Shown: positions 1 to 21,909, counted from the first letter of the stretch. The stretch: 64,000 bases of DNA from an uncultured Bacteroidota bacterium (GCA_963768145.1 CAVYHK010000031.1:8187-72186), one strand, 5' to 3'. Made by a program: numbers and translations. Notes: a model not told the origin generated them from the letters alone.

Positions 1-299
1 AATACTTGAACACAATCAGAAGCAAAAAAGTTTAACGACCCTGTATTTCCGGACTACGGATCGGCTGTTTTTAGCATCGCCGCAAATGCTTGACAAAGTG
101 GAACATGGAAACTAAATTGAGATGCGATGATTGTGTATGCCAGTGAATCGCGAGATGGGAGGTTGAACAAGATCAATCGATTAGACCAAGCTTTACATAC
201 AAAAGACATAACAACGACATCCCGACCTGCGTCGGGACAAGTTATGGCGTGTAACGTGCTGCATATGGCGGGAAGACGCCATATGGCAGATTTCAGGTA

Positions 300-504
300 G
301 TTCCAGCGAACATTCGCGAAGCGATGATTCGACGTTGCCTTTCCGCACCTTGTGTGTTTCCACATAGGCTGACTGTTGACTTGGACTTCGAGCCATTTAA
401 CAGAGTCGTGCATCCTTTCGGATTCTTTTATTTCTGCAAGGATTCCACCCTTACAAGAACACGTCGAATCAAAGCTCGCTTCGCGAATAAGCGTCCGCTG
501 GAAC
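300..504. repeat. Long imperfect inverted repeat (gene-less, attC-like or structured RNA)
   Basis: Perfect stacked helices: 300-308/496-504 (gttccagcg/cgctggaac), 312-324/476-488 and 325-335/461-471. Confidence 0.7.
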
Positions 505-556
505 GTGCCGCGCGACCAGCGGCGTTCCAAGAGCCGACGCCCGCTTCGCGAACGTC

Positions 557-728
557 GTGGAACACCGCAAAAAACGTCATGGCGAATAAAATAGACGAAT
601 CGGCAGGCATCATCGAATAGTGACTGCGACCTCAACGGCTCCATGATGTCACCGTCTTGTAGTCATACGTTTCAGTAACTGCCGATTCAAAAATTCGCCA
701 CGAACGTTTTTCGCGCGGCACGTTATGC
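557..728 (+). repeat. attC-like recombination site 0 (divergent, 172 bp)
   Basis: gtggAAC...GTTatgc; arms aaaaacgt/acgttttt, tggcgaat/attcgcca and gaatcggcag/ctgccgattc; shares tcatggc...gccacga with the other sites. Confidence 0.7.
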
Positions 729-769
729 GCAACGCCGCGACATATTCGTCTGAGTGACAATGAGGTGAT

Positions 770-1327
770 ATGAAGAAGTCCGATTTTTCTACGATTGCAT
801 TTTGTATCGCTGGAATATTTTCAGTCGTCGAGGGTTTGCTTATTCTAAGAGGACCACTCCAGATGCTGATAGTTCCTAGCGACTTTCGCCCACCGATAGC
901 ATCCGCCGCTTTCGTCCTTTTTCTTGCTCCCGTGATTCTCTTGTTACTCGGGGTTGTTCTTATTGCTTTTGCGAACAAAATAGGGAAAAAGTTGTTACCC
1001 GACGCGTCACAAGAACAAGTGAGCATCAGCTTGCAGGCCAAAGACCTCAAGACAATTTTGTTTTCCTTTGCGGGGCTTTTGCTCATCGGATTTGCGATTG
1101 CACCAACGCTTGAGAACATCGCTAGACTGATCGACCTTCACAACGATTTCAACTTTGTAGGCGAAAACCAACTGAGAAGGTTAGCGCGGGACTTGGGATG
1201 GACGCTGGCAGGTGGCGGTCTGCAACTGTTGTTCGGTGTTGCACTCCTCTTCCGGTGGAAGAGCAACCGTGGTTTCCTGCGAAAGCTCAGACCTATGGGT
1301 TCTCTGGATGAAGGCGACAGGAAGTAA
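770..1327 (+). CDS. Hypothetical integral membrane protein (about 4 TM), cassette 1
   Basis: 185-aa ORF with gagg RBS and four hydrophobic segments; fills the space between sites 0 and 1. Confidence 0.8.
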   Translation: MKKSDFSTIAFCIAGIFSVVEGLLILRGPLQMLIVPSDFRPPIASAAFVLFLAPVILLLLGVVLIAFANKIGKKLLPDASQEQVSISLQAKDLKTILFSFAGLLLIGFAIAPTLENIARLIDLHNDFNFVGENQLRRLARDLGWTLAGGGLQLLFGVALLFRWKSNRGFLRKLRPMGSLDEGDRK

Positions 1328-1357
1328 AGTGGTGCCAAGTTATTTTCGCGGCGCTGC

Positions 1358-1473
1358 GCATAACAGCGCGAAAAAAGACGCTCGCCATTCTATATTGCAA
1401 GTGCTCGCTTCATGGCGCGCACATTATAGGCTGCAAGGAGCGCGCCACGACTTTTTTCGCGCAAACGTTAGGC
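1358..1473 (+). repeat. attC-like recombination site 1 (116 bp)
   Basis: gcatAAC...GTTaggc; 12-bp stem gcgcgaaaaaag/cttttttcgcgc; inner stem tggcgcgc/gcgcgcca. Confidence 0.9.
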
Positions 1474-1562
1474 GCAATGCCCCTTCTTTAGAATTATAAA
1501 GAGTGAGCACAAAACTAAAGCGGCATACTAAGAGAATTCATATCAAATAAGGAGAAGAGCAC

Positions 1563-2303
1563 ATGCCAACCGGAATAGAGGAAGCAGTCGCAACTGCTGC
1601 CGCCGAGATAGCGAAAGAGTCTTCAGTTGAAATAGCAAGAGGAGCACACTCCGAACTTACGTCGGAAATCGCTGAAGCGCCAGAAGTCAAAAAGGTCAAC
1701 TTGGTGAATGAAGCTGGATTAAAAGAGCATAAAGTCAGACTCAAAGACGTAGATGGGATATTCGATAGTCTCAAAGAGAGAGGTATCAAAAGCATCACGA
1801 AGGCAAGTGAGGAATTAGGAGATCGTCTATCGCGAGCCGAACTCGAAAGGCGCCACAATTCGATCCTGGAAGTCCAACCGAGATATGGCATAAACCCTGA
1901 GACAAACTATCCATTTCGAGCCGATTACAAATTCGCAAGAGAACCAGGATCAAGCCTTAGGGAAGTTGTAAAAACTGGAAATCACTTCTCGGTTACCGAG
2001 AAGATTTCTTCTGTAAGAAAAGAAGCTTTACTGGATGTAAAGAATCACAGCGTGGATTCGATAAATCGTTTTTTACCCGATACATTGGAAAAGATCGAGC
2101 GAATGAAACGAATGTCTCCCGATACAGAGACGGTAATCTCAGTTCCAGAAGACGTGGCACTAAACCGAGGTTCCGCGAATGCTATTATAAGGATGCAAGA
2201 TGCTGGAGCAAGAGTGATTACCCATGCGCCTTATGAGGCCACCATGCGTCAAGCAATTCGTCGGTACTTCGAAATGAAGTCCAACTCACAACCAAAATCA
2301 TGA
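1563..2303 (+). CDS. Putative PD-(D/E)XK restriction-endonuclease-fold protein with low-complexity Ala/Glu-rich N-terminus, cassette 2
   Basis: aaggag RBS; motif order SEELGD (helix-1 Glu), FRADY (catalytic Asp), LLDVKN (D-x-K); ATGA overlap with the downstream ATPase. Confidence 0.6.
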   Translation: MPTGIEEAVATAAAEIAKESSVEIARGAHSELTSEIAEAPEVKKVNLVNEAGLKEHKVRLKDVDGIFDSLKERGIKSITKASEELGDRLSRAELERRHNSILEVQPRYGINPETNYPFRADYKFAREPGSSLREVVKTGNHFSVTEKISSVRKEALLDVKNHSVDSINRFLPDTLEKIERMKRMSPDTETVISVPEDVALNRGSANAIIRMQDAGARVITHAPYEATMRQAIRRYFEMKSNSQPKS

Positions 2304-5300
2304 ACAATGCCATTAGAGTTTTAGGGTGGTACGGTCGACTTCGAGCTGATCAAGTTGCCGCGTCCACCATCTCCTACGAAAAGGAAGGTCAGAGCCGCGA
2401 CAATGACCAGGCGGCAAAGAAGATTGCGGAAGGCAACTTGATCGTAGCCGACCTGATTGACAAAGCTCTGGGAAAAACCAGAGAGATTGATATACTGGTT
2501 TTCAAGGCAGACGGAGAAATAGTATTTCAATTGCAAGGTAACTTCAGTTCAGCAGAGATCGAAGTTCCAGGCGTTGTCATTGAGGAATGCGAGAACGGAG
2601 TGAATCGTTTGATCGGAACAAAGACGTGTCACATGGGAATTTTCGACCCTCTCTTTATTTCAAGTCAATATCCTGATACTCTTATTTCGAAATTACGGAA
2701 GTTCGATGACGGAAACGGATTCGCATTTAGAATATTATCGGGTTTGCCTAGGTCTAATGCTCATGACCTAAATGATGAGTCAATAAAAGCTGCCACCGCA
2801 GCAAACAAAATACATTCCCTTGAAGTGCAAAAGACGCCAAAGTTCTTCGCTAATCTAAGAGGAAGCAAGTCATTTTCTGTGTCAAATGACAGTTGGGAAG
2901 GCTATGCAAAGATAGCTGCCGAGTATTACGCGGCGACCTTTAAAAATGTGGGAAGATTGTTGAAGTGTCAGATGTTCGCATGGGGCAAAGATATCGATTC
3001 TTTGCTTCTGGAACTTTCTAATCTCAGGTTACCATCTCATCCTTTTCAGCTAGACTTTTCCGTGACTGGTGATGTGCCTGACTTTGATCCAAAACCTGAG
3101 AAGGTTGATGCTTCTGACTATAATCTTGTCAAGGATTTCTTTTCTATGGAAAGACAAGCCGAATTGCGACAATTCGTCTCGAGAGATGCACTAAGCACGC
3201 TTTTGAGTCTGTGCCCTTTCGAAGTGCCAGGCATAAAATACATTTGGGAACCTCAGTTCAACATGAATCCACCAAGACTCGATGCCGATGGAAAGGAATT
3301 CAGTATTGGGAAAGTTCAGAGCAAAGGCATACCTCTCTCCGACTTCAAGCTGTCCCCCCAAAGGCTAACTGAGCACGTCTTCATTACAGGTAAAACGGGT
3401 AGCGGTAAAACGAACTCATGTAAAATCATTGCCGACAAATTGCTCGATCAATGTCAGATAATTGTATTGGAGTCTGCCAAGAATGAGTACGCAGGATGGG
3501 CAGCCGAGCACGAGGTGAAATACTTTGCTCCAGGCAGCCGTAATTTCAATGACCTTTCTTTCCCCATTTTTAGGATTCCTTACGAAAAGAGCAATACTGG
3601 ATTCTGCACAAGACTACCAGCTTCGGAACATATCGGTGGTCTCTGGGGAGTAATTTCATCGGCGTTCCCACTCGAAGGACCAATGATACCTCTTCTTAAG
3701 CGTGCCTTGCACCGAGTTTATGAGGATTATGGTTGGGCATTGACAGGGGCAAAAGCAAACATTTTCCAAGATGTCGGCGATCCTAAGTTTCCATCTGTCG
3801 AAGCCTTGTGCGCAATTCTTGCAAAGCTTGTTGATGAATTAGGATACGAAGGAGAAATACGTTCCAACATAGAAGCAGCACTAGTGAATCGTTTGAGAGA
3901 TTTGCATGTTGGAGTAAGAAAAGAGATTTTCTCTGAAAGCGAAGAAAGTCGATTTTCTATTTTTGATTTGCTCAGAACCTCAGAACCAAGTCCTAACAAC
4001 CACATCGTCATTTCTTTTGATAACTTGGAATCTGAAGAAGACAAAGCTCTCGCGTTGGGACTATTCCTGTTGCGATTACGTGAGCAGGTGAGAATCGATG
4101 GCATCAGACATAATCATTTGCGGAGATTGGTCATCATCGAGGAAGCTCATAGAATTGTACCAAACGTCAAGTCCGAGGCAACGATCAACCCCAGTGTGGG
4201 ACAACAGAAGGAACAGGCTGTTTCGAGATTCAATGATTCCATATCCGAGATGCGGGCATACGGAGTCGGATTTATGATCGTGGACCAATCGCCGTCCAAA
4301 GTGTCCTTGGACGTGCTTAGAAATATCGGTACTAAGATTGTGCATTCAGTGCAGGAGGAAGATGACCGGAAGGCGGCCTGCTCAATCCTTGGGGAAGAAC
4401 CTGAGATAGGGAGTTATCTTGTTGGGTTAGACCGCGGATTTGCCCTCGTGCACACCCGCGGCATGCAAAAGTCGGAACTAGTGAAGGTCACCGAACGGAG
4501 AAACAGTGATTTGTTGCCAAAGAAAAGGAAGACTCCCGACACATTTGAAGATGAACCATTCGAAGTTGAGGATGTCTGCAACCATTTACTGAGCGAGTTG
4601 ATTACGGGACTTGTATCCTTAGATAGGTCTGACGGTTCGATTGATCATATGCGCAGAAATGAAGTTGACCTATTTTTGCGCTATGGCATAAGGTCAGAGC
4701 AGGGAAAGCAGCGGGCTTGGCAATCTTTGTGTGAAGGAAAACCAGATGTCGGTTTGGTCGCTGATTGCGCATCTTGTCAATTAAAATGTCGGATTCCCGC
4801 CATCCTGCAGATCGTTGCACAAAGGGATGGAACGGTGATTGGTTCAACCAAAGCTGATGAATACTCCACAGCAGAACTTTTCCTTTCCACAATTCAATTA
4901 TGGAAATCAAGATCGATAAATGTTGCTCGGTCAGTAAATGAACTCACAAGCCACGTTGTCAGCGAATACATCCTGCCTAAAAGTAAAAACACATCCGACA
5001 GAGATTTACTTTATGATGATATAGAAAAGCTTTGCAATGGATTCGTGCAATGTCTAGCGCTCCATTCCAATTATAACAGAGAGCTGGCCAACATTGTTAT
5101 TTCCTTGGCAGGCAGTCAAGAACTCTCGAATTTACCAAGTCCAGAAAGTGCAACAACCACGGTTGGAAAGACATCGAAATTGAAAGACGACATCGAGGAG
5201 AGACCTCTACCATTATCTGCGGTAAATACATTTGACAGAGCCGAGGAAAGCGTTATCGGTCAAACTCTAATAGAATACATTGATGAAAAGGTCGGGATAT

Positions 5301-5401
5301 TTCTTAAGGAATTGCGCAGCGTTAAGAATTACTTTTCATTATTTACACTGTCGCTTCTGATTATGATTGTAGTCTTCTTCATCCTGTTTCTGGTAAAATG
5401 A
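2300..5401 (+). CDS. HerA/FtsK-superfamily (DUF87-like) ATPase with C-terminal transmembrane tail, cassette 2
   Basis: Walker A ITGKTGSGKTN, Walker B LVIIEEAHR, HerA motif SEMRAYGVGFMIVDQSPS; CASCQLKC cysteine cluster; ends in hydrophobic FSLFTLSLLIMIVVFFILFLVK. Confidence 0.88.
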   Translation: MNNAIRVLGWYGRLRADQVAASTISYEKEGQSRDNDQAAKKIAEGNLIVADLIDKALGKTREIDILVFKADGEIVFQLQGNFSSAEIEVPGVVIEECENGVNRLIGTKTCHMGIFDPLFISSQYPDTLISKLRKFDDGNGFAFRILSGLPRSNAHDLNDESIKAATAANKIHSLEVQKTPKFFANLRGSKSFSVSNDSWEGYAKIAAEYYAATFKNVGRLLKCQMFAWGKDIDSLLLELSNLRLPSHPFQLDFSVTGDVPDFDPKPEKVDASDYNLVKDFFSMERQAELRQFVSRDALSTLLSLCPFEVPGIKYIWEPQFNMNPPRLDADGKEFSIGKVQSKGIPLSDFKLSPQRLTEHVFITGKTGSGKTNSCKIIADKLLDQCQIIVLESAKNEYAGWAAEHEVKYFAPGSRNFNDLSFPIFRIPYEKSNTGFCTRLPASEHIGGLWGVISSAFPLEGPMIPLLKRALHRVYEDYGWALTGAKANIFQDVGDPKFPSVEALCAILAKLVDELGYEGEIRSNIEAALVNRLRDLHVGVRKEIFSESEESRFSIFDLLRTSEPSPNNHIVISFDNLESEEDKALALGLFLLRLREQVRIDGIRHNHLRRLVIIEEAHRIVPNVKSEATINPSVGQQKEQAVSRFNDSISEMRAYGVGFMIVDQSPSKVSLDVLRNIGTKIVHSVQEEDDRKAACSILGEEPEIGSYLVGLDRGFALVHTRGMQKSELVKVTERRNSDLLPKKRKTPDTFEDEPFEVEDVCNHLLSELITGLVSLDRSDGSIDHMRRNEVDLFLRYGIRSEQGKQRAWQSLCEGKPDVGLVADCASCQLKCRIPAILQIVAQRDGTVIGSTKADEYSTAELFLSTIQLWKSRSINVARSVNELTSHVVSEYILPKSKNTSDRDLLYDDIEKLCNGFVQCLALHSNYNRELANIVISLAGSQELSNLPSPESATTTVGKTSKLKDDIEERPLPLSAVNTFDRAEESVIGQTLIEYIDEKVGIFLKELRSVKNYFSLFTLSLLIMIVVFFILFLVK

Positions 5402-5440
5402 ATCAGCCTAGATCGCTAATCAATTGGGGTCGGGCACTGC

Positions 5441-5555
5441 GCTTAACAAGCAAGAAAAAGACGCTCCACATTATATATGCAAGGGGGTCGCTTCATGGCG
5501 CGCACATTAGATAAAGAAGGAGTGCGCCACGACTTTTTCTTGCGGGGCGTTATCT
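5441..5555 (+). repeat. attC-like recombination site 2 (115 bp)
   Basis: gcttAAC...GTTatct; stem gcaagaaaaag/ctttttcttgc; closely similar to site 1. Confidence 0.9.
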
Positions 5556-5595
5556 GCAATTGCCCGTCAGTCTGTTCCAAGAAAGAGGAGGAGAT

Positions 5596-7701
5596 ATGAA
5601 ACGGCGTGCTCAATTGATTTCGGTTATGTTTTTGCTCCTAGTATTTTACAATGAGATAATGGCTCAGTGGGTTCGGACTCAGGGGCCATACGGCGGCAAT
5701 GTGTGGACGTTAGCGAGCAATGGTTCCACTCTCTTTGCAGGGACCGATCATGGGCTGTTCAGCACCACAAACAACGGCTCACTCTGGACGGCAACAGACG
5801 CTGGGCTAGCTGGCTCGAAGGTCCTTGGGCTGGCATTTAAAAGCTCTAATGCTTTTGTTGCCACCGCAGGAGAAGGGGTCTTTCTTTCTACGAATAACGG
5901 TGATGCTTGGGAGCCCATCAACACGGGACTAACTGAGACTTATGTCTACGCTCTTGCCATAAGCGACAGCGTTATTTTTGCAGCAACAGATCGTCACGGA
6001 GTTTTCCTTTCCACCAACAACGGAACAAACTGGTCTGCGGCCAATAGCGGTATCACGACTCAGGATGTGTATTGCCTATCGGTGGCGGGTACGAAAGTAT
6101 TCGCAGGGACTGATAGTGGGATCTTTGTCTCCACAAATGACGGTGCAAGCTGGTCTGCCGCAAACGTAGGCTTGACAAAGAAACTCGTCGAGTCATTTGC
6201 TGTTAACGGCAATAATATCTTCGCGGGAACTTGGGGAGCCGGGGTGTTCCTTTCCACAAACGGCGGCGCAAGCTGGGCTCCTACAAATAACAAACTTTCG
6301 GGCGCCCATGTTTATTCACTGACCGTCAGTGGAACCAGTGTTTTTGCCAGCACAATGGAAACCCCCTTCGTCTTCTCCACAACAGACAGCGGAAATTCGT
6401 GGACTGCGATTGGCATAGCGCAAACGCAGTTTGGTGTGCCCGCTTTGATCGCGAATGGCGGAGTCCTCTTCGCAGGGACTTTTGGCGGCGGCGTGTTTCT
6501 TAGCACGAACAACGGTAAAGATTGGACGCAAGCGAGCACAGGGCTGACCGACTTGGGCATTCAGAGTCTAACCGTATCTAGCGGTTCCATTGTTGCGGGA
6601 ACTTATGGAGAGGGAGCCTTCCTTTCATCTGACAACGGCAATAGTTGGGGTACTTCAGATAACGGATTCACATTGCCGTTTACCTACGTTAATTCCCTGG
6701 TCATCAGCGGTACGAACCTTCTGGCAGCTACTCTAAATGGTATCTTTCTTTCTACGGACAACGGGGCGCACTGGAACTTGGTCGGAAGCGATTTGATAAG
6801 CGGTTCGGTCCCTAGTCTTGCCATAAGCAACGGAAATCTCTTTGCCTGTTCCAATACTGATCATATTTATCGTTCGACCGATAACGGCCAAAGCTGGACT
6901 GCAGCCAGCTCAGGTTTCGTAAATCCTCCAGGGTCTGAGATCATTTCCAGCGTAGCTTGCCTTGCCTCAAGTCGCTCAGGACTCTTGGCGGGTAGCACGG
7001 GACGGGGCGTGTTTCTGTCGACTGACAGTGGCGCAAGCTGGAACGCGGTTAACACTGGTCTTACTGGTGGCTACGTTACTGCACTCGTGGCAAATGACAG
7101 CTCCGTGCTTGCAGGAAGTTGGGGAGTCTTTCTTTCTACCGATGGCGGTGTACATTGGAACGCCGCCGACAGTGGCTTACCTTCGCCATACCCAGGGATT
7201 AATTGTTTCGAATTCTTCGGTTCCAATGTGTTTGCTGGCACCGACGGCGGAGGCATCTTTCTCTCAACTGACAGAGGCTTAAGTTGGGCTGCTGTCAATA
7301 TGGGGCTAGAGGGTGCACGCGTCCTATCCATAGCAGTGAGTGGCAAGGACCTTCTCGCAGGTACAGAGAGCGGATTGTGGAAGCGCCCTCTTTCCGAAAT
7401 GATTACAGCGGTAGAGACCAGGTCGAATCCCATCCCATCAGCTTTCTCCCTCATGCAGAACTATCCTAATCCATTTAATCCATCGACCATCATTAGCTAC
7501 CATTTGGCAACAAATGCCAATGTGGTCTTGAGAATTTTCGATGTTCTCGGGCGGCAAGTCGGAACACTTGTCAATGAGCGTCAGAGAGCGGGTGACCATT
7601 CCGTGAAGTTTGACGGGGGCGCTCTACCAAGCGGTGTATATTTCTATAAACTTGAAACGGGCGTGTACCATGACACCAAAAAGTTGCTCATGCTCAAGTG
7701 A
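5596..7701 (+). CDS. Secreted BNR/Asp-box repeat beta-propeller protein with T9SS C-terminal sorting domain, cassette 3
   Basis: gaggaggag RBS before ATG 5596; Sec signal peptide; many S-T-D/N-N-G-x-x-W Asp-box repeats; CTD LMQNYPNPFNPST...KKLLMLK. Confidence 0.9.
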   Translation: MKRRAQLISVMFLLLVFYNEIMAQWVRTQGPYGGNVWTLASNGSTLFAGTDHGLFSTTNNGSLWTATDAGLAGSKVLGLAFKSSNAFVATAGEGVFLSTNNGDAWEPINTGLTETYVYALAISDSVIFAATDRHGVFLSTNNGTNWSAANSGITTQDVYCLSVAGTKVFAGTDSGIFVSTNDGASWSAANVGLTKKLVESFAVNGNNIFAGTWGAGVFLSTNGGASWAPTNNKLSGAHVYSLTVSGTSVFASTMETPFVFSTTDSGNSWTAIGIAQTQFGVPALIANGGVLFAGTFGGGVFLSTNNGKDWTQASTGLTDLGIQSLTVSSGSIVAGTYGEGAFLSSDNGNSWGTSDNGFTLPFTYVNSLVISGTNLLAATLNGIFLSTDNGAHWNLVGSDLISGSVPSLAISNGNLFACSNTDHIYRSTDNGQSWTAASSGFVNPPGSEIISSVACLASSRSGLLAGSTGRGVFLSTDSGASWNAVNTGLTGGYVTALVANDSSVLAGSWGVFLSTDGGVHWNAADSGLPSPYPGINCFEFFGSNVFAGTDGGGIFLSTDRGLSWAAVNMGLEGARVLSIAVSGKDLLAGTESGLWKRPLSEMITAVETRSNPIPSAFSLMQNYPNPFNPSTIISYHLATNANVVLRIFDVLGRQVGTLVNERQRAGDHSVKFDGGALPSGVYFYKLETGVYHDTKKLLMLK

Positions 7702-7712
7702 CGGGCAACAGC

Positions 7713-7847
7713 AGATTACAAGCAAGAAAAAGACGCTCCATATTATATACGCAAGGTGGTCGCTTCATTGCTCTCGCCCGTTATCTCGATGCTCCGCAAC
7801 TTTTATGGCGGGCGAGAGCAACGACTCTTTCTTGCGATACGTTAGCC
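7713..7847 (+). repeat. attC-like recombination site 3 (135 bp; left core agattac, AAC mutated)
   Basis: Same arms gcaagaaaaagacgctcca...gactctttcttgc; inner stem ttgctctcgccc/gggcgagagcaa; right core GTTagcc. Confidence 0.85.
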
Positions 7848-7883
7848 GCCACGCAACGGCAGGGAAAGCTACGAAGAGGTTTT

Positions 7884-8357
7884 ATGAATAGAAGGTCATA
7901 TCTACTTTTTTTCACGGTGATTTTGCTGGTTGGGGGTTCGTGCAGAAAATCGCCCACTGGCCCTCAGTTACCTTCTCAACCGGTCGAGAACACTGATCGG
8001 ACACAATACTATTTCTCTACGGCTGATTACAAAGATACGGTCTGGGTAGAGGTGGAGAACGGAACGGACTCAACTATTTACAGGTGGTACCCACATGCGA
8101 CTGTTGATCTCAAACAAGCAGACGGAACCTGGCAGGTCGGGGGCATCATAGACGAGACGCCTTTGGGGCCAGTTCTCCCACACAAGACCGCAAGGAGATG
8201 GATGTTCATAATGAACGACGACAGTGTTTGGTCGGTCGGAACTTACTCTTTCAACGCAGAGGTATTCTTTACTGACGACCAGACCTGCGCGACGAAAGGG
8301 TGCGTAAGCGTAAGTGTGCGATCTAACCCTTTTTCACTAGGATGGAAGGAACCTTGA
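7884..8357 (+). CDS. Hypothetical lipoprotein, cassette 4
   Basis: True start is likely MNRRSYLLFFTVILLVGGSC (lipobox-like GGSC) after gagg RBS; the longer ORF call runs through the attC-like site. Confidence 0.75.
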   Translation: MNRRSYLLFFTVILLVGGSCRKSPTGPQLPSQPVENTDRTQYYFSTADYKDTVWVEVENGTDSTIYRWYPHATVDLKQADGTWQVGGIIDETPLGPVLPHKTARRWMFIMNDDSVWSVGTYSFNAEVFFTDDQTCATKGCVSVSVRSNPFSLGWKEP

Positions 8358-8385
8358 GGAGCGACATCACCAGCCGCCGTGCGGC

Positions 8386-8516
8386 GGCTAACATGCGGGA
8401 CAAAGACGCTTCCCGATCAGGATCATATCGGGACAGGCTATTTAAGGATCGCTTCATGGCACGCACATTATTTCAAGAAGGAGCGCGGGAGGGCGTGATT
8501 CTCGCGCACGTTATCT
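8386..8516 (+). repeat. attC-like recombination site 4 (131 bp, partly eroded)
   Basis: ggctAAC...GTTatct; retains aaagacgct, tcgcttcatggc and cgcacatta; contains an extra hairpin tcccgat...atcggga. Confidence 0.8.
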
Positions 8517-8553
8517 GCCATGCGTCTGATATAGGTAATATCAAGGAGACAAC

Positions 8554-9225
8554 ATGAAAACAACTTCTATCCGAATCCTTGGTCTCATTGGCCTGGGAGC
8601 AGCTCTTCTCATGTTCGTTGGTGACATGTGTCTGTATGGACATTTTGGGAATGGTGGCGATGCTATCTCCAAGCTTGTCATTTCAAATGAATCCGATACC
8701 CGTATTGTAGTTGGCGGATTCATCGGCCCGATTGCTGCCATCTTGTACTGTGTCGGATTCTTCTCTGTTTATTTCATGATATCCCCGAGAAGCCGGATGT
8801 TAGCTATCGTGATTGCAGGGGGCGCGGCCGCAGTGATGGCAATTGGAGGCGCTTATCATGCCATGTGGAGTATACGAGCCTTCCTGATCAAAGCTGGCCT
8901 GTCATCTGGCGATTATCAAGCATTGTATAGCCAAATCAAAGACTACACGTTACTTTTCTACAACACAATGTTTGCAGGCGCAGAAGTGATTTCTCTGCTC
9001 CTGTTGTTTGCTGTTCTATCCGGCAGATCGCTTTATCCGAGATGGAGCGTCGTTGTCAATCCCGGAATCCTTCTCCTGTTGAGACCGCTCGCCGATCTTA
9101 TCCCAGCGCCTCTGGGTGCGATCGTCTCGGGTGGGTATCTCAATCTCATGTTTGTTGTTTTTTTCTCAGTGAGTGTCTTGGTAACTCGATCGGCCGACGA
9201 TACGCTCCAGACGCACGGCGCATGA
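8554..9225 (+). CDS. Multi-pass membrane protein (DUF6796-like from memory), cassette 5
   Basis: aaggag RBS; 223 aa with about 6 TM segments. Confidence 0.8.
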   Translation: MKTTSIRILGLIGLGAALLMFVGDMCLYGHFGNGGDAISKLVISNESDTRIVVGGFIGPIAAILYCVGFFSVYFMISPRSRMLAIVIAGGAAAVMAIGGAYHAMWSIRAFLIKAGLSSGDYQALYSQIKDYTLLFYNTMFAGAEVISLLLLFAVLSGRSLYPRWSVVVNPGILLLLRPLADLIPAPLGAIVSGGYLNLMFVVFFSVSVLVTRSADDTLQTHGA

Positions 9226-9268
9226 CAGTGGTAACACCGACCCCGATTAGGAACATATCGGGGCAGGC

Positions 9269-9373
9269 AGTTCACGCATTCCATTTTTTTGGATAGAGGA
9301 GTTAACTCAACGCTGCACTCATTGTATATTCTAGTGGTTGCGTGGCGCCGCATAGTTGCCGCGGACGTTAACC
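9269..9373 (+). repeat. Degenerate attC-like site 5
   Basis: Right end cGTTaaccgcaacgc fits the family consensus; left end ggcagttcac only weakly complements the cassette-5 start; arms not conserved. Confidence 0.4.
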
Positions 9374-9442
9374 GCAACGCGGCTGAAAATTTCGACAACA
9401 AAAAGGACGAGTCTATCATCGTAACACTCCAATGAGAAGGAG

Positions 9443-9811
9443 ATGTCTCCAATGACGCGATTCCTGAAGCGATTGCTGTTTTGGTCACCAAGAGTGCTCA
9501 GTATTCTGTTTGTTCTGTTTATCAGTTTGTTTGCGTTGGATGTGTTTAATGAGGGCCACGGGTTTTGGCAAACGCTGCTGGCTCTCCTTATACACTTAAT
9601 CCCAACAGTACTTGTCATCATCGCAGTTGTAATTTCCTGGCATCGGGAATGGATTGGAGCGGTGTTGTTTACTGGCGGCGGACTGTGGTACCTGTTGGCG
9701 AACTTGAGGCACTTCTCCTGGATACTGACGATTTCTGGCCCGATGTTGTTGATTGGCATCCTGTTCTTACTAAGTTGGCTGTATCGGAAGGACCTTCGAA
9801 TCAGCTCGTGA
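9443..9811 (+). CDS. Small 4-TM membrane protein
   Basis: aaggag RBS; WSPRVLSILFVLFISLFALDVF start and hydrophobic pattern of a conserved hypothetical family. Confidence 0.8.
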   Translation: MSPMTRFLKRLLFWSPRVLSILFVLFISLFALDVFNEGHGFWQTLLALLIHLIPTVLVIIAVVISWHREWIGAVLFTGGGLWYLLANLRHFSWILTISGPMLLIGILFLLSWLYRKDLRISS

Positions 9812-9952
9812 GATGGCGACAAAACCAAAATATTTGCAGTGCCACCGTTCGCTTTAGTATTTTGTAGCAGCGCCACGCCCCAGCATTAATTGAGTGCTCG
9901 GGTACGTGTGTTTTCTGCTTATATCAAAACGATACCAAGGAGGAATCAACTT

Positions 9953-10390
9953 ATGAACGAAACTCTTCAGTACGCCGGATTTTGGCGTCGCTTTTCCGCC
10001 TATGTAATTGACAGCGTCGTCATTGCTTTCGCTCTCGACCAGTTAGGTACTCTCTTCTGGAGCATGTTAGCACTGTCATCCAATAGCTACGAAATTCAGG
10101 GTCAGTATCATGCAATATACTTGTTGGTGATGTCCGTTCCACTCGGGTGGATGTACTTCAGCGGTATGGAGAGTTCGCCGCTTCAGGCCACGGTTGGAAA
10201 GCTGGTTGTTGGCCTCTACGTGACCGATTTGCAGGGGCAGAGAATCTCTTTCGGGCGTGCCACCGGCCGATTCTTTGCGAAGGTTCTGTCAGGCATGATA
10301 ATCCTAATCGGCTACCTGATTGCTGGGGCCACACAAAAGAAGCAAGCGCTTCACGACATGATGGCGAGCTGCTTAGTCCTGCGGAAATAA
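9953..10390 (+). CDS. RDD family membrane protein
   Basis: YAGFWRRFSAYVID, QATVGK, QALHD motifs; aaggagg RBS before ATG 9953. Confidence 0.92.
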   Translation: MNETLQYAGFWRRFSAYVIDSVVIAFALDQLGTLFWSMLALSSNSYEIQGQYHAIYLLVMSVPLGWMYFSGMESSPLQATVGKLVVGLYVTDLQGQRISFGRATGRFFAKVLSGMIILIGYLIAGATQKKQALHDMMASCLVLRK

Positions 10391-10432
10391 GTGGTTCAGA
10401 ATGGATTGACGTAACATGAATGAGGCAATCAA

Positions 10433-11635
10433 ATGCATAATCCTATGATGGGAACTCTCTACCAAATGGGACTTCGGTTGAAGAGATGCAAGTGGATCTT
10501 GATCGCTTTGCTGACCATTTTTGTGCGGGGGGTCTCTGCCCAGGGTTTCGAACAGTTTCTTCACAGGCTCGAATCTCTGCCTGAGTCAGACAGAGCGGCG
10601 ACGGTGGACAGCCTCCTCACGGTAACGAAGTCATTTCCGATTATCGAGCAAGACACCGTCGTCCACTACATCTACAACGGTCCAGCGAAGAAGGTTTCGG
10701 TCCCGGGTGACGTGAACGGATGGAAACCTGACTCGATGCCGATGACGCAAATCGGTGGGACGAGCCTATGGTACCTGACTCAGAACTACCCCGCTGACGC
10801 AAGATTGGAGTACAAGTACGTTGTCGACGATACGATCTGGATTCTCGATCCGCGTAACTCGAATCAAGCGATCGAAGGATTCGGTCCAAATTCTGAATTG
10901 AGGATGCCAGAATATACTCCGCCACCCGAGATAGAGTATTACCCGAATATCGCGCATGGCACCGTGGCTGACACAATCTGGTACAGCTCAAATATTTCGA
11001 ACAAAAGGAAGATCGAGGTATATCTGCCTGCCGGCTACGCCTCTATATCGGATAGTTTCCCGGTTGTCTATTTTCAAGATGGATCTGAAGCCGTGTCGCT
11101 GGAAAAAGCTGAGAACATTATCGACTACCTCATTTCCAAAAAGTTGATTCGACCTGTAATTGCTGTCTTCGTCCCGCCGATGAATCGCAATGCAGAATAT
11201 GCGGGGGATCAGGTGAGTCTGTTCATGAATTTCTTTGTAGACGAGCTTGTCAACTTTGTGGACACACATTACCGAACGGTCAAGAACCCGATGGGTAGGG
11301 CAGTGATCGGGGCTTCGTTCGGAGGAAATATCTCCTTATGGTTGGCAGCCAGGCATAATGAAATTTTCGGAAACGTTGCCGCACAGTCGAGTTATGTCGA
11401 TCCGCAACTTGAGCGGATTTTCCAGGATGGGCCGATGCTGAATCTGAAAATCCATCTCGATGTTGGGACTTATGACATGCCTGAACTCATTCCGATGGTG
11501 AATGATTTACATTCAATTCTGCAAGCGCGTGGTTACATGTTTGAATACGGCGAGTACCATGAAGGCCACAGTTGGGGGAGCTGGCGAGCAAGGATTAGAA
11601 ATGCCCTGGAGTTCTTCTTCCCTGCAAAGGGTTAG
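10433..11635 (+). CDS. Fes/enterochelin-esterase-like alpha/beta hydrolase with N-terminal Ig-like (CBM48/E-set) domain
   Basis: GASFGG nucleophile elbow, EGHSW catalytic His, LEYKYVVD...DPRN; signal peptide (start could be a downstream Met). Confidence 0.88.
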   Translation: MHNPMMGTLYQMGLRLKRCKWILIALLTIFVRGVSAQGFEQFLHRLESLPESDRAATVDSLLTVTKSFPIIEQDTVVHYIYNGPAKKVSVPGDVNGWKPDSMPMTQIGGTSLWYLTQNYPADARLEYKYVVDDTIWILDPRNSNQAIEGFGPNSELRMPEYTPPPEIEYYPNIAHGTVADTIWYSSNISNKRKIEVYLPAGYASISDSFPVVYFQDGSEAVSLEKAENIIDYLISKKLIRPVIAVFVPPMNRNAEYAGDQVSLFMNFFVDELVNFVDTHYRTVKNPMGRAVIGASFGGNISLWLAARHNEIFGNVAAQSSYVDPQLERIFQDGPMLNLKIHLDVGTYDMPELIPMVNDLHSILQARGYMFEYGEYHEGHSWGSWRARIRNALEFFFPAKG

Positions 11636-13077
11636 GTTGCTTTGGTGAACGGCCATTCTTTCTTTGAATATGCCCGAACGAAATATGCGACCAGTCCGGC
11701 GACCAAGATTATTGCTGCATATTCTATCTGCTGACAGAAATTATGTCGTAAGAAAAGCACGAATAGAAATCCAGCGAGTGAGATAACTGCAGGGATCGGA
11801 TAAAGCCACATCTTGAAGGGGCGCGGCGTGTCCGGGTGCTTCCGCCTCCAGACCAATAGGCCGACCGTTTGTGAGAGGAACTGTATGACTATTCTTATGA
11901 CGACAAGCGCCGCAATCACTTCCGCAAGACTCAAAAAGCAAAATAAAGCCGCTACGAATCCGAGCGTAAGAAGCGAGACATAGGGAAATTGATGCTCCTT
12001 GTGAACCCGCCCGAAGATTTTGAAGAAGTTGCCGTCAAGCGAAGCTGCGTAAGGTATTCTTGAATATCCGAGAAGCAGTGAGAAGACCGATGCGAAAGCG
12101 GTCCACATTATCAAGAAAGTTGCAAGTTCGCCTGCCCAATTTCCATAGAGGCTTTCCATCATTGCTGAGATCAGAAAACGACTATCTTTCGTCCCGTCCA
12201 TTAGCTCCTGCCACGGAATGACGCCCAATATGCTCACGTTCATTACAATGTAAATAACCGCGACAAGTGCTATCGAAATCAGAATGGCGCGCGGGATTGT
12301 CTTTGTCGGCTCTTTAACTTCATCGCCTAAGAAACAGACGTTGTAGTATCCCCAGTAATCGTAAACCGAGATGAGCATTGCGGAGCCGAGTCCGAGGAAG
12401 AAATTTGGTGAGAGTGAGAATGCATCTCGCGGAAAATTAAATGCCACGGAACTCCTGAAGTGGGTGACCCCTGCGAAGATCACCCAGGCGATTGTTCCCA
12501 TCACGACAATCCAAAGGAACCGAGAGAGTTTGTTTATGGCGGTGATTTTCCTGTAGAGGAGAATCAAGGCAATAGCACAGGCAGAGATGGCTACAAACGT
12601 AAGTCCGCTGGCGGTCAGGTTAGCGTGGAGATCTTCTGCGAATGGAAGTGGGATGACAAAAATCGCTCGGCTGAGTTGCGGAAAGAAGTAAGTCGAGTAC
12701 TGTGCTAATCCAATACATCCTGAGGCAATCGAGAGCGGCGCGCTGAAAAGGAGCTGCCAGATGAAGAGGAAGGACATCATCTTTCCGAGCCTGCCTCGTC
12801 CATAGATTTCGCCGAGATAGTGGTACGTGCCGCCGGAGCCGGGAAGGGCGGCGCCAAGTTCTGCCCATACCATCCCGTCGCACATTGCGAGTATCGCTCC
12901 GAGTATCCATCCTAACATTGCCTGCGGTCCGCCCATCGCGGAGATGATCAGTGGGATTGTTATGAATGGCCCCACGCCGATCATGTCAATCATGTTGAGC
13001 GAAACCGCGCCTGAGAGGGTTAATCCTCTGAGAAGTTGCTGTGGTTTCTGGGGAGTTTCAGTGTCGGATTTGGTCAA
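11632..13077 (-). CDS. APC-family amino acid permease
   Basis: MIGVGPF, AELGAALPGSGG, GDEVKEPTKTIPRAI, RPFKMWLYP; about 12 TM. Confidence 0.93.
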   Translation of the reverse strand: MTKSDTETPQKPQQLLRGLTLSGAVSLNMIDMIGVGPFITIPLIISAMGGPQAMLGWILGAILAMCDGMVWAELGAALPGSGGTYHYLGEIYGRGRLGKMMSFLFIWQLLFSAPLSIASGCIGLAQYSTYFFPQLSRAIFVIPLPFAEDLHANLTASGLTFVAISACAIALILLYRKITAINKLSRFLWIVVMGTIAWVIFAGVTHFRSSVAFNFPRDAFSLSPNFFLGLGSAMLISVYDYWGYYNVCFLGDEVKEPTKTIPRAILISIALVAVIYIVMNVSILGVIPWQELMDGTKDSRFLISAMMESLYGNWAGELATFLIMWTAFASVFSLLLGYSRIPYAASLDGNFFKIFGRVHKEHQFPYVSLLTLGFVAALFCFLSLAEVIAALVVIRIVIQFLSQTVGLLVWRRKHPDTPRPFKMWLYPIPAVISLAGFLFVLFLRHNFCQQIEYAAIILVAGLVAYFVRAYSKKEWPFTKAT

Positions 13078-20032: not shown

Positions 20033-20122
20033 AATTGCTCCTTTCTGATGAAGGTTGAACTTGCTGAGTTGCCTTTTGGGTCAACTCAGAGTTGGACGCG
20101 ATATTTTGATCCTTGTATTGAA

Positions 20123-20151
20123 AATTTAGTTCCTCTTTTATTGAGATTCAA
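20123..20151 (-). promoter_or_regulatory. sigma70-like promoter for serA
   Basis: Minus strand TTGAAT-N17-TAAATT. Confidence 0.55.
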
Positions 20152-20239
20152 AGCCACCAGCTTGGCGGGTTGCTAAGGGCTATCCGAAACTCGCAAACCC
20201 ATGAGGATTATCTTCATCGCAGTAATCGCACATTGAGGT

Positions 20240-20255
20240 TGTGACTCATCTCACT
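20240..20255. promoter_or_regulatory. CRP/FNR-family-like operator
   Basis: TGTGA-ctcatc-TCACT in the divergent serA / DUF362 intergenic region. Confidence 0.4.
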
Positions 20256-20391
20256 TTGTTTAGAGAAGGGCCTTTCCTATGAATAGAAAGGTGCTAACTA
20301 AAGATGTAACTTGAAACAAAGACCGCTCTTAGAGACCTTGACAGGTTAGATTAATTTTTCTCAAATAATGCTAGCATAATCCGGAGGCTAT

Positions 20392-21909
20392 ATGAAGGAA
20401 AAAGATACTGAGAACTTCGCTGAACTGGATTCTTCACGGCGAAGATTTATAAAGACAGTCGGCACTGCTGCTGCAGGTTTACTCGTTGTCCCTTACCTGC
20501 GACCATCGGGGGTCTTCGCCTACGCGCACAAGGGGACCTCTTTTTCAAAAAGCCCGCTAGACTACCTTGCGACCGTCGCAATAACAAATACAAATCCATC
20601 TACGGGCTCCCTCCCGGCAGATAGCTACGTTTACGATGACGCCGGAGGCGGCGTCAAACAGAAAGTGTACTACCTTCTCGGATTGCTCGATCAAAATCAA
20701 TCTGGCAAGGTGTCAGCCTTGTTTAGCACGGGAAAAAAAGTCGTAATAAAAATGAATTTGACGGGTGGATCGAGCAATGCAACAAGTCCGAACCTGAAGG
20801 GGCTTCCCGCGACTGAAGTTATATGGTCCCATCCGATGGTTGTCGAGGCCGTGGTACAGTTTATAATTGATGCGGGCGTTTCGCCAAGCGACATCTCAAT
20901 AGTGGATAGCCTTGGAAGCGGCGACTCTTTCACCAAATCTGCCTATCAGGGCTACGTGGATGCCAAGAATGCATTGGGATGCAATCTGGTTGACACTACC
21001 CAGGGTACTTTTGTTGACATCCCCATCACAGGCGGTTTTAATTTTTCGTCTATCCATATGAATCAGATATTTAAAGATGCGGACGTCTATGTTTCAGTCC
21101 CGAAATTGAAGCAGCATGCCACAGCTGGACTGACATGTTCGATCAAGAATCAGATGGGGGCGACGCCACAATCATACTACGAGTTGAGTGGTTATACTTA
21201 TCGGCGGGAAAGGCTTCACCATGCATCGGGCACTGCCTCAGAATGGAATTACCTGCCCGAGACTCTCTGCGATTTGAATGCAGCCCGGCCGGTCCATCTT
21301 GCCGTGGTTGACGGAATCAAATCCGCTGTCGGCGGGGAGGGACCTTGGAATGTTCCCACCTGCCCCTTCGCTCCCGCCTCAAAACACGTTTTGATTGCTG
21401 GATTGGACCCGGTTGCAACCGATACGATTGGTGCAAAAATTATGGGACTCGATCCTGAAGCAACGACTCTGACTTTACCAGGGCCGCTTACGGACAATGG
21501 TGTTTCATCCACAGAGTGCGATAACTATCTGAACCTTCTCAACGGAAGGAACGGTTGGACAAATCAACTAAATAGCATTAACATCGTCGGTGACGGGAAA
21601 AACTTGGTAACCGCAATACGACCGAAGGTTGAGGCACAGCAGCCCAAAGAATTCAAGCTGGGCGCGAACTATCCGAATCCGTTTAATCCATCGACCATGA
21701 TAGTTTTTTATTTGCCGCGCAATGAACATGTGACGTTGAAGGTGTATGACGTTGCCGGCCGTGCCATAGAGACCCTTGTTGATGGCGTGGCCCCTGCAGG
21801 CGAACACAAATTGCAATGGAACGCGACGGGGTTGGCAAGCGGCATTTATATTTGCAGAATGCAGGCCGGGAATTTCTCCGAAACGATAAAAATGGTTTAT
21901 CAGAAGTAA
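20392..21909 (+). CDS. Tat-signal DUF362-domain protein with T9SS CTD (paralog 1)
   Basis: SRRRFIK twin-arginine motif; KVVIKMNL, VSVPKLKQH, SIKNQMG, VVDGI, DPVATD DUF362 motifs; NYPNPFNPST CTD. Confidence 0.88.
   Translation: MKEKDTENFAELDSSRRRFIKTVGTAAAGLLVVPYLRPSGVFAYAHKGTSFSKSPLDYLATVAITNTNPSTGSLPADSYVYDDAGGGVKQKVYYLLGLLDQNQSGKVSALFSTGKKVVIKMNLTGGSSNATSPNLKGLPATEVIWSHPMVVEAVVQFIIDAGVSPSDISIVDSLGSGDSFTKSAYQGYVDAKNALGCNLVDTTQGTFVDIPITGGFNFSSIHMNQIFKDADVYVSVPKLKQHATAGLTCSIKNQMGATPQSYYELSGYTYRRERLHHASGTASEWNYLPETLCDLNAARPVHLAVVDGIKSAVGGEGPWNVPTCPFAPASKHVLIAGLDPVATDTIGAKIMGLDPEATTLTLPGPLTDNGVSSTECDNYLNLLNGRNGWTNQLNSINIVGDGKNLVTAIRPKVEAQQPKEFKLGANYPNPFNPSTMIVFYLPRNEHVTLKVYDVAGRAIETLVDGVAPAGEHKLQWNATGLASGIYICRMQAGNFSETIKMVYQK

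Follow-up and report, generated by a model that had tools for sequence, protein, structure and literature searches.

The DNA considered here is a stretch of 64 kb from an uncultured Bacteroidota bacterium (G000:C31:8187-72186, hereafter the window, in a genome of 53 contigs that is 100% complete by marker genes), and its subject is a co-oriented array of six gene cassettes at window 241-9373, each closed by a folded site of about 115-170 nucleotides (nt; ..AAC/GTTA..). With high confidence, the array consists of mobile gene cassettes that are built like those of an integron, and this cassette nature is well supported. Integron biology rests on the I2 insertion of the integrase IntI and on extrahelical bases of the attC site that are gripped by I2. 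A tyrosine recombinase without I2 heads a 19-site array of the same family on another contig of the genome (C21), and the arrays probably represent a lineage of integrons that runs parallel to the canonical one, does not depend on I2 and is widespread in Bacteroidota.

In an integron array, crossover at G/TT parts the right flank of each site from its own left flank, so that a cassette's first bases are complementary to the flank of the site that closes it on the 3' side. Arms of this kind are recovered by a repeat search of the window for cassette 2 (722-740/1346-1364, 95% complementary), cassette 4 (5549-5569/7699-7719, 86%) and cassette 5 (7841-7863/8370-8392, 78%). Genome-wide, 46 pairs of adjacent sites were compared: counted from the G of GTT, positions 5-18 of a site's right flank show 63-91% complementarity to the left flank of the next site, with the exception of position 11, which is complementary in a fraction of 0.04. 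Within one site, complementarity at positions 5-18 is 25-56%, with the family-conserved position 8 at 0.87, and 3000 pairs drawn at random give about the same values. Of the 13 positions from 8 to 20, 7.87 are matched in adjacent pairs versus 4.87 within a site and 4.50 (standard deviation 1.9) at random. The switch of partner in flank complementarity sets in at position 5 counted from the G of GTT; as positions 1-4 (GTTA) are invariant, the crossover is placed in or just before GTTA, while the exact phosphate is not placeable because positions -2 to +4 are invariant.

The cassettes are also found to differ in their company. Window 720-1474, which holds cassette 2, is 100% identical to C21:64088-64842; the identical stretch runs from ACGTTA through GTTAG, and the two copies have different neighbours on both sides. 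When 12 further genomes of the genus are compared, at least 8 of them share the core that starts near 10538 and includes an esterase and an amino-acid permease (66-75% identity, matches beginning at 10538-10634), and the array region is matched only by site-length pieces and two single cassettes. The cassette 4 stretch 5524-7736 has an 88% identical copy with another upstream neighbour in G405:C137, and window 700-1395 an 80% identical copy in G412. A locus of another genome of the genus (G372:C1), reached by its esterase and permease genes, was rejected as an orthologous array, its sites being in opposite orientation.

The original prediction, made from the DNA of the window, had read the region as integron-like cassettes bounded by ..AAC and GTT.. 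within a host-specific site family. This reading is supported by the end complementarity at the level of the cassette, by the identical GTTA-bounded cassette in two arrays and by content that varies within the genus next to a flanking core that is kept; neither a fixed gene order, nor missing end complementarity, nor breaks away from GTT were seen. That the repeats spread alone, as elements resembling repetitive extragenic palindromes or miniature inverted-repeat transposable elements between fixed chromosomal genes, would account for a palindromic intergenic element in many copies in one genome, but we regard it as extremely improbable, as the copies are co-oriented per cluster and situated at the 3' ends of co-oriented genes, 18 of the 19 units of the C21 array hold one + strand open reading frame (ORF) that fills the unit, gene content varies among genomes of the genus and the duplicated unit is gene plus site rather than the site alone.

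All six sites of the window array are on the + strand, each directly 3' of a + strand gene. The features, in window coordinates and with proteins in amino acids (aa), are as follows.

181..240, + strand: recombinase remnant, the 3' end of a tyrosine recombinase gene like that on C21 (rec21-like); no intact gene on C31
241..302, + strand: attI-like junction, with AAC (254-256), a short hairpin (261-287) and the GTT of the first cassette boundary (300-302)
300..724, + strand: cassette 1, short, no convincing gene; ORFs overlap site 1
476..728, + strand: site 1, atypical/composite, R''-like boxes end at 505 and 563, long insert; R' GTTATGC at 722-728
722..1469, + strand: cassette 2, gene 770-1327, predicted membrane protein of 185 aa, no family (nothing above cut-off in Pfam)
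1358..1473, + strand: site 2, R'' GCATAAC to R' GTTAGGC, 114.9 bits with the covariance model R1
1467..5551, + strand: cassette 3, genes 1563-2303 (246 aa, no family) and 2300-5401 (1033 aa, HerA/DUF87-type ATPase)
5441..5555, + strand: site 3, R1 109.4 bits
5549..7843, + strand: cassette 4, gene 5596-7701, BNR/Sortilin-repeat protein with a type IX secretion C-terminal sorting domain
7713..7847, + strand: site 4, R'' variant AGATTAC (TAC for AAC), R1 96.5 bits
7841..8512, + strand: cassette 5, gene 7884-8357, 157 aa, no family (nothing in Pfam)
8386..8516, + strand: site 5, R1 62.5 bits
8510..9369, + strand: cassette 6, gene 8554-9225, DUF6796 membrane protein (Pfam 1.7e-22)
9229..9373, + strand: site 6, degenerate, last of the array, starts at GGTAAC 9230-9235; R1 23.1 bits, nhmmer E 1.3e-4
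9374..10530, + strand: array edge region, genes 9443-9811 (DUF7670) and 9953-10390 (RDD) by Pfam, no site after them

The six related sites flanking co-oriented genes, as originally predicted, are borne out by nhmmer, by R1 and by the gene layout. Iterated nhmmer over the whole genome matches C31 at window 696-753 (partial, E 3.3e-4), 1346-1499, 5430-5584, 7697-7862, 8364-8540 and 9212-9396 (weak, E 1.3e-4). R1 matches 1355-1476, 5438-5558, 7710-7850 and 8383-8519, which is expected by construction since these four sites (2-5) trained the model, and it also matches 9217-9376 (23.1 bits, E 0.004), which is absent from the training set; over the whole 64 kb it finds nothing besides these five and no site past 9376. 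The predicted conserved internal words hold as well, AAAGACGCT occurring six times in the window (four in sites) versus 0.78 expected, with 0 of 100 shuffles reaching six, and TCGCTTCAT four times, all in sites, versus 0.88 expected, with 1 of 100 shuffles reaching four. By letter-by-letter reading, which covered window 1-10500, CGTTANNNGC is the end of all six sites, in agreement with the shared end that had been claimed, and the claimed start ..AAC or a variant of it reads TAC in site 4. The sixth site had been placed at 9269, and in fact starts at its GGTAAC box; the first had been placed at 557, where there is indeed an R''-like box (557-563), but a second such box ends at 505 and a long insert follows.

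The two ends of the array deserve a closer description. The start of cassette 1, GTTCCAGCGAAC..TTCGCGAAGCG, is by reading complementary to both left flanks, the one that ends at 505 and the one that ends at 563, and a 12-bp helix connects AAC 561-563 of site 1 with GTT 722-724. Site 1 (476-728) appears as a longer variant whose R''-like box is doubled and whose insert is large and variable; related copies are present at C44:54120-54460, so that the longer two-box variant occurs in at least two arrays. Site 6 has a hairpin in common with site 5, and a complementary partner of its right flank, sought downstream, was not found. The genes at 9374-10530 may be decayed cassettes or the edge of the array.

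The sites belong to a family that recurs across the genome, with 68 nhmmer matches in about ten arrays, co-oriented within each cluster (C21 19, C10 14, C44 9, C31 6, C48 5, C4 4, C51 3, C33 3, C1 2, C26 2, C23 1). The covariance model R1, built from the sites and run genome-wide as had been suggested, gives 53 matches, 40 of which are training sites. The consensus of 58 aligned sites reads GCRYMTAAC, 1-2 nt, a variable stem, AGACGCTC, a hairpin, CTCGCTTCAT, a variable stem, ACGAC, the stem partner, 4-5 nt ending in AC and GTTAKSYGC; almost all of the 55 sites in which both boxes are aligned possess the R'' (..AAC) and the R' (GTT..) box.

What is conserved in the sites is structure rather than sequence, with paired R and L boxes and a variable terminal structure. 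In an alignment of the bottom strands of 40 of the 55 two-box sites (sites above 150 nt or outside the fetched loci being omitted), RNAalifold predicts 29 pairs, 23 of which show compensatory changes. Paired cells amount to 91.3%, versus 72.5% in shuffles and 33-52% with the partners slid, and the covariation score is 0.481 versus 0.165 in shuffles, with 0 of 500 shuffles as high; this shuffle significance is overstated because the aligned sites are related copies, a weakness of which the slid controls are free. Folds of single sites are only modestly above shuffles (z -0.9 to -3.2, the bottom-strand DNA fold of site 2 having -34.9 kcal/mol and z -3.2), and covariation is therefore relied on instead; a generic hairpin detector, with a background of about 0.1 per kb, was not used for counts. 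In the fold, the R helix TAAC(G)/(T)GTTA is short, and the other parts are an internal loop that is asymmetric, an L helix of 11-16 bp and a conserved three-way junction. Among 32 clear sites, the spacers that follow AAC and precede GTT measure 2/5 in 17 and 1/4 in 11, hence an unpaired central spacer is present. Next to the R box, 37 of 40 bottom strands have a G.T pair. At position 11, counted from the G of GTT, A faces C on the top strand, so that a G.T wobble would form on the bottom strand; the G.T pairs at these two places may be strand markers.

Strong covariation and a conserved three-way junction, in an element just 3' of each gene that would be co-transcribed with it, would be expected of RNA, for example 3' untranslated region structures, terminators or regulators of the upstream genes, with covariation arising from RNA folding. 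We consider it very unlikely that the repeats are primarily such elements, since the complementarity between a cassette start and its own distal flank, the identical GTTA-bounded cassette in two arrays and the linkage to a recombinase are not explained by an RNA function, and no Rfam family reaches its gathering score in the window. The sites may have an RNA role in addition. A hammerhead-like or other ribozyme, suggested by the three-way junction, was dropped, as the junction words, judged by eye, do not fit the hammerhead core and there is no Rfam match.

With respect to the enzyme, no gene of the genome reaches the cut-off of the integron-integrase model TIGR02249. The best match is C21:52721-53668 (+ strand, 315 aa), with 233 bits versus a cut-off of 265 and model positions 180-232 unmatched; about 530 nt past its stop codon, the 19-site C21 array starts on the same strand. 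The protein combines an IntI-type N-terminal domain (PF13495) with PF00589, has VchIntIA (2a3v, E 1.4e-44) as its best relative in the PDB, ahead of XerA, and scores 222.9 with the NCBIfam model XerA_Arch (cut-off 220). Its alignment to 2a3v splits at the IntI insertion, where 18 query residues stand opposite 60. An AlphaFold2 model from a 52-sequence alignment (mean predicted local distance difference test score, pLDDT, 81.9) has 2a3v as its closest Foldseek match (E 1.1e-17); a single-sequence model is poor (pLDDT 45). R160, K185, H250, R253, H276 and Y285, which we take to be the catalytic set of the family, are invariant across the 52 homologues.

The recombinase lacks the IntI-specific (I2) region of about 42 residues. 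The distance from the catalytic Lys to HxLRH is 62 residues in the C21 protein and 61-66 in 75 of 78 homologues drawn from 79 loci of public genomes, the other three being truncated, versus 103 residues in all 12 canonical IntIs taken from this phylum. Because canonical IntIs are 31-35% and I2-less homologues across Bacteroidota 40-67% identical to the C21 recombinase, the split from canonical IntIs appears to be old rather than a recent deletion. The original prediction had allowed for a tyrosine recombinase with or without I2, located with attI to the left of the window or elsewhere; the intact gene is indeed elsewhere and without I2, but the attI-like junction lies inside the window. The genome encodes other Xer-like genes, and some homologues of the C21 protein are named 'site-specific tyrosine recombinase/integron integrase' by NCBI.

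The junction ties the window to this gene. Window 181-302 aligns to C21:53618-53716 (75% identity), that is to the end of the intact recombinase gene and the DNA beyond it, and over the 60 nt of window 243-302 the identity to C21:53657-53716, a segment overlapping the recombinase stop codon, is 95%. Further copies of the junction are found in C44 and, in the same genus, in L131 (84% over 56 nt with blastn-short, 83% over 107 nt with blastn). Both the window and the C21 junction end at the GTT that opens the first cassette, the first bases of which pair by reading with the flank of the first site. The junction is 3' of the recombinase gene and not 5', and may be called attI-like by its position, in analogy to integrons. 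As tblastn with the C21 recombinase gives no match on C31 and six sites lie within 9 kb, the window array would count as a cluster of attC sites lacking an integron-integrase (CALIN), a class defined for IntegronFinder, with which it shares sites and cassettes and no intact recombinase gene nearby; it differs from a CALIN by keeping a junction site and the remnant of an I2-less recombinase.

Linkage of array and recombinase is encountered repeatedly. R1 sites are directly downstream of, and co-oriented with, the I2-less gene in L035 (8 matches) and L036 (1 match), and downstream also in G019 (intact gene), in G029 and G014 (gene remnants) and in G410; in L032 a single R1 match is just upstream of the gene, beyond which the record extends for only about 4 kb. 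Within the genus, an R1 array downstream of an I2-less gene is present in G400, G325, G378, G118 (two loci), G360 and G372. A sample of 151 genomes of the class, with presence of the recombinase defined as an intact homologue at E <= 1e-50, contains 16 genomes with both R1 sites and recombinase, 12 with sites only, 12 with recombinase only and 111 with neither, counts which are descriptive because related genomes are not independent; 4 of the 12 sites-only genomes carry a gene remnant beside the sites.

The layout of recombinase plus array extends to Flavobacteriales, Chitinophagales, Bacteroidales and Cytophagales, where homologues 42-58% identical to the C21 protein have downstream arrays of host-specific AAC/GTT sites with the same complementarity at the cassette level. 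Such distant arrays occur in a Bacteroidales metagenome-assembled genome (L044, 11 chained cassettes), Pollutibacter soli (L081, 13 signature pairs), Flavobacteriales bacterium ALC-1 (L071), Maribacter (L072, L106), Aquimarina, Mucilaginibacter and others. The generic scan for cassette signatures, which is symmetric under reverse complement, noisy in AT-rich genomes and used for cassette chains only, gives 0.27 pairs per kb downstream versus 0.18 upstream, and 13 of 55 loci have a pair starting at most 300 nt from the gene. In loci of other phyla, repeated positions are found downstream in 0 of 6. A whole-genome search of five Bacteroidota genomes with the same architecture finds a canonical IntI in none, and none is found in 17 of 21 genomes of the genus, including three assemblies of one or two contigs that are rich in R1 sites. 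The Maribacter genome G005 (of L106) encodes five copies of the I2-less recombinase, four of them nearly equal in score. In L106, a segment of 300 nt is repeated at 99% in two cassettes (12033-12332 and 20114-20413), which hints at a recent duplication or a small mobile insert.

The type of site varies with the type of enzyme. In Bouvier (2009; PMC2727003), two or three extrahelical bases on the R''-L'' arm are described as common to all known attC sites, typically as a conserved G plus a T 6-8 nt away. In the genome of the window, the two extrahelical bases are absent and the first helix is uninterrupted over 11-16 bp in 28 of 32 clear sites. In arrays beside a canonical IntI, two extra L'' bases, 6 bp apart, are present in 5 of 5 sites of G078 and 5 of 5 of G410, as C and A on the top strand, equal to G and T on the bottom strand, and an R1 search of 38 kb around the canonical IntI gives no match in either genome. 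The single-contig genome G410 carries both systems. Its canonical IntI heads an array of bulged sites, while the 11 kb downstream of its I2-less gene (C1:4189-4998, - strand), which run across the record origin, hold an R1 array of eight full matches and one cut at the contig end, 8 of the 8 full ones being bulge-free in the first 11 bp. The canonical IntI of G410 is co-oriented with its own array, which starts about 126 nt past its 3' end (L133, G410:C1:3484000-3494820), and that of G078 is divergent from its array, so that both layouts exist for canonical integrases in the class.

In the mechanism that we propose, a cassette would be composed of a gene and its 3' recombination site and, by analogy with integrons, would be excised as a circle via recombination of two neighbouring sites within the invariant ACGTTA, the position of which agrees with the integron G/TT point, and be taken up again at the junction site, directly next to the recombinase gene's 3' end. 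The sites would be recognised as folded DNA, and, following the integron model, in single-stranded form. The enzyme would be the tyrosine recombinase C21:52721-53668 with its relatives, IntI-like, with six catalytic residues and without I2; sites without extrahelical bases would match such an enzyme, since it is I2-bearing integrases that bind those bases. The window array would have lost its own recombinase gene and be served in trans. That the I2-less recombinase is the acting enzyme is likely on the grounds of synteny, of the co-variation of site and enzyme type, and of the absence of a canonical IntI in several near-closed genomes.

Several observations weigh against this proposal. A canonical IntI, counted as a score over the TIGR02249 cut-off, is present in 90 of 301 genomes of the phylum and 4 of 21 of the genus, and among ten R1-positive genomes outside the genus that are also in the 301-genome sample, eight encode one, so that a canonical enzyme could act in trans. 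Both site families have the AAC/GTT boxes and the 2/5 spacer geometry in common, 23 of the 55 sites of the genome gave no clean L helix with a simple aligner, and in Pollutibacter (L081), beside an I2-less recombinase, five of eight sites have one extra base. Repeated positions are found downstream of the gene in only 18 of 32 loci with at least 3 kb downstream (one titled Nitrospirota, 16 rows from other phyla having been set aside) and also upstream, in 11 of 50. The bottom strand is the more stable in only 29 of 40 sites and, outside one invariant G.T pair, 36 G.T stand against 42 A.C positions; as both biases are weak, no strand of action is claimed. Finally, in the tree of recombinases, the Xer outgroups (truncated rows) are placed on very long branches (5.9 and 7.8-9.2), and the tree therefore fits the I2-less clade as a sister to IntI or as derived.

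The first of these points would favour a different explanation, in which the arrays are ordinary CALINs with cassettes made and moved by a canonical, I2-bearing IntI that has since been lost or is unassembled, the I2-less recombinase being a bystander or relic. The frequency of canonical IntI in the phylum and the genus, its presence in eight of the ten assessed R1-positive genomes outside the genus and the shared R boxes and spacer geometry speak for it, as does the finding of Bouvier (2009; PMC2727003) that IntI1 still integrates a Vibrio cholerae repeat (VCR) site without extrahelical bases at attI with an about 6-fold loss. Against it, the same study has attC x attC recombination by IntI1 and VchIntIA, the step of excision, abolished if both sites are without extrahelical bases (PMC2727003). 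Moreover, each R1 array examined has its start at the 3' end of an I2-less gene or of a remnant of one, the DNA around the canonical IntI of G410 and G078 holds the other site family and no R1 match, near-closed genomes of the genus are rich in R1 sites without a canonical IntI, and the I2-less genes are intact with invariant catalytic residues. We therefore hold the CALIN explanation to be unlikely, and favour the I2-less recombinase as the enzyme of the arrays.

How the lineage originated is a separate matter. A quick tree search places 22 of 22 rows labelled as array-bearing, labels which were assigned by us from the array scans, within one clade of 60 Bacteroidota/Ignavibacteriota rows with support 86. 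One could think of the arrays as a surviving pre-I2 stage of the integron, in which the I2 helix was never acquired, though we judge this doubtful. If it were true, the capture of folded single-stranded cassettes would predate I2 and extrahelical bases and need neither of them. Escudero (2020; PMC7790495) describes I2 as necessary for cassette capture and as conferring single-strand recombination, with evolutionary intermediates lacking, and Smyshlyaev (2021; PMC8138268) calls the insertion 'not fully conserved' in an integron-like subgroup, which it does not link to arrays.

Among known systems, sedentary chromosomal integrons such as the V. cholerae superintegron (VchIntIA/VCR) are the closest in several respects, namely promoterless, co-oriented single-gene cassettes, each ending in an imperfect palindrome from RYYYAAC to GTTRRRY of a host-specific site family, a crossover at or beside GTT, and many cassettes without an assigned function; the recombinase is also closest to VchIntIA in sequence and fold. 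In contrast to them, the recombinase here is without the IntI-specific region of about 42 residues, the sites are without the two extrahelical bases and with a conserved three-way junction, and the gene is co-oriented with the cassettes with the junction at its 3' end and not upstream of its 5' end. In the integron reported for Treponema denticola, the integrase is oriented like the cassettes and carries the I2 region. The present gene, co-oriented and with the array on its 3' side, resembles this type, as does the canonical IntI in G410, but differs in having no I2. With Xer recombinases (XerA, or XerC/D acting at dif or hijacked by integrative mobile elements exploiting Xer), it shares the domain layout, the lack of I2 and the XerA_Arch score just above the cut-off; unlike a Xer/dif system, it heads a 19-site array of folded-site cassettes instead of a single dif site, exists in several copies in some hosts (five in one Maribacter) and is accompanied by other Xer-like genes in its own genome.

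The lineage, in which the original prediction had supposed integrons to be poorly described, is not poor in them, considering the canonical IntI in 90 of 301 sampled genomes of the phylum, a frequency far above what the cited literature suggests for Bacteroidota. The IntegronFinder 2.0 preprint mentions only In0 elements in Bacteroidetes from an earlier study, and now one complete integron, in Salinibacter. With canonical integrons being common in the phylum, the unusual feature is the second, I2-less type of recombinase. Our literature search, the coverage of which is incomplete so that an earlier description is possible, found no account of I2-less integrons or of bulge-less attC arrays in Bacteroidota.

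A system with the anatomy of an integron but neither of its hallmarks makes the origin of integrons directly testable, and bulge-less sites suggest another way to read folded DNA, perhaps via the conserved three-way junction. Current detection tools require the IntI-specific domain and would thus overlook many mobile cassettes, a large reservoir of them, in Bacteroidota and their relatives. Bench work is feasible, since arrays of this kind are present in several cultured hosts (Pollutibacter soli, Maribacter, Aquimarina amphilecti, Marivirga sericea, Mucilaginibacter arboris).

In the C21 array, 9 of 10 scanned cassette products are without a Pfam family, as is usual for chromosomal integron cassettes. 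In cassette 3, the ATPase of 1033 aa matches Pfam DUF87 (E 1.7e-7) and has weak matches to PADLOC HerA models, down to E 6e-13. The two-gene unit (window 1563-5401) may be a compact anti-phage defence module, as has been reported for chromosomal integron cassettes. The product of cassette 4 matches Pfam Sortilin-Vps10 (7e-28) and Por_Secre_tail (2.9e-9). The C-terminal sorting domain of type IX secretion recurs in the cargo (window 7455-7700, L017:7424-8764), and the segment coding for this sorting tail matches many paralogues in the genome and in related genomes.

To the left of the window, the first approximately 5.5 kb of C31 have a GC content of 58-64% versus about 48-55% afterwards. The ORF C31:5230-7419 joins a PanC-like N-terminus to the body of an ABC transporter near C31:5570, and this join within C31:1-8186, upstream of the window, looks like a chimeric assembly.

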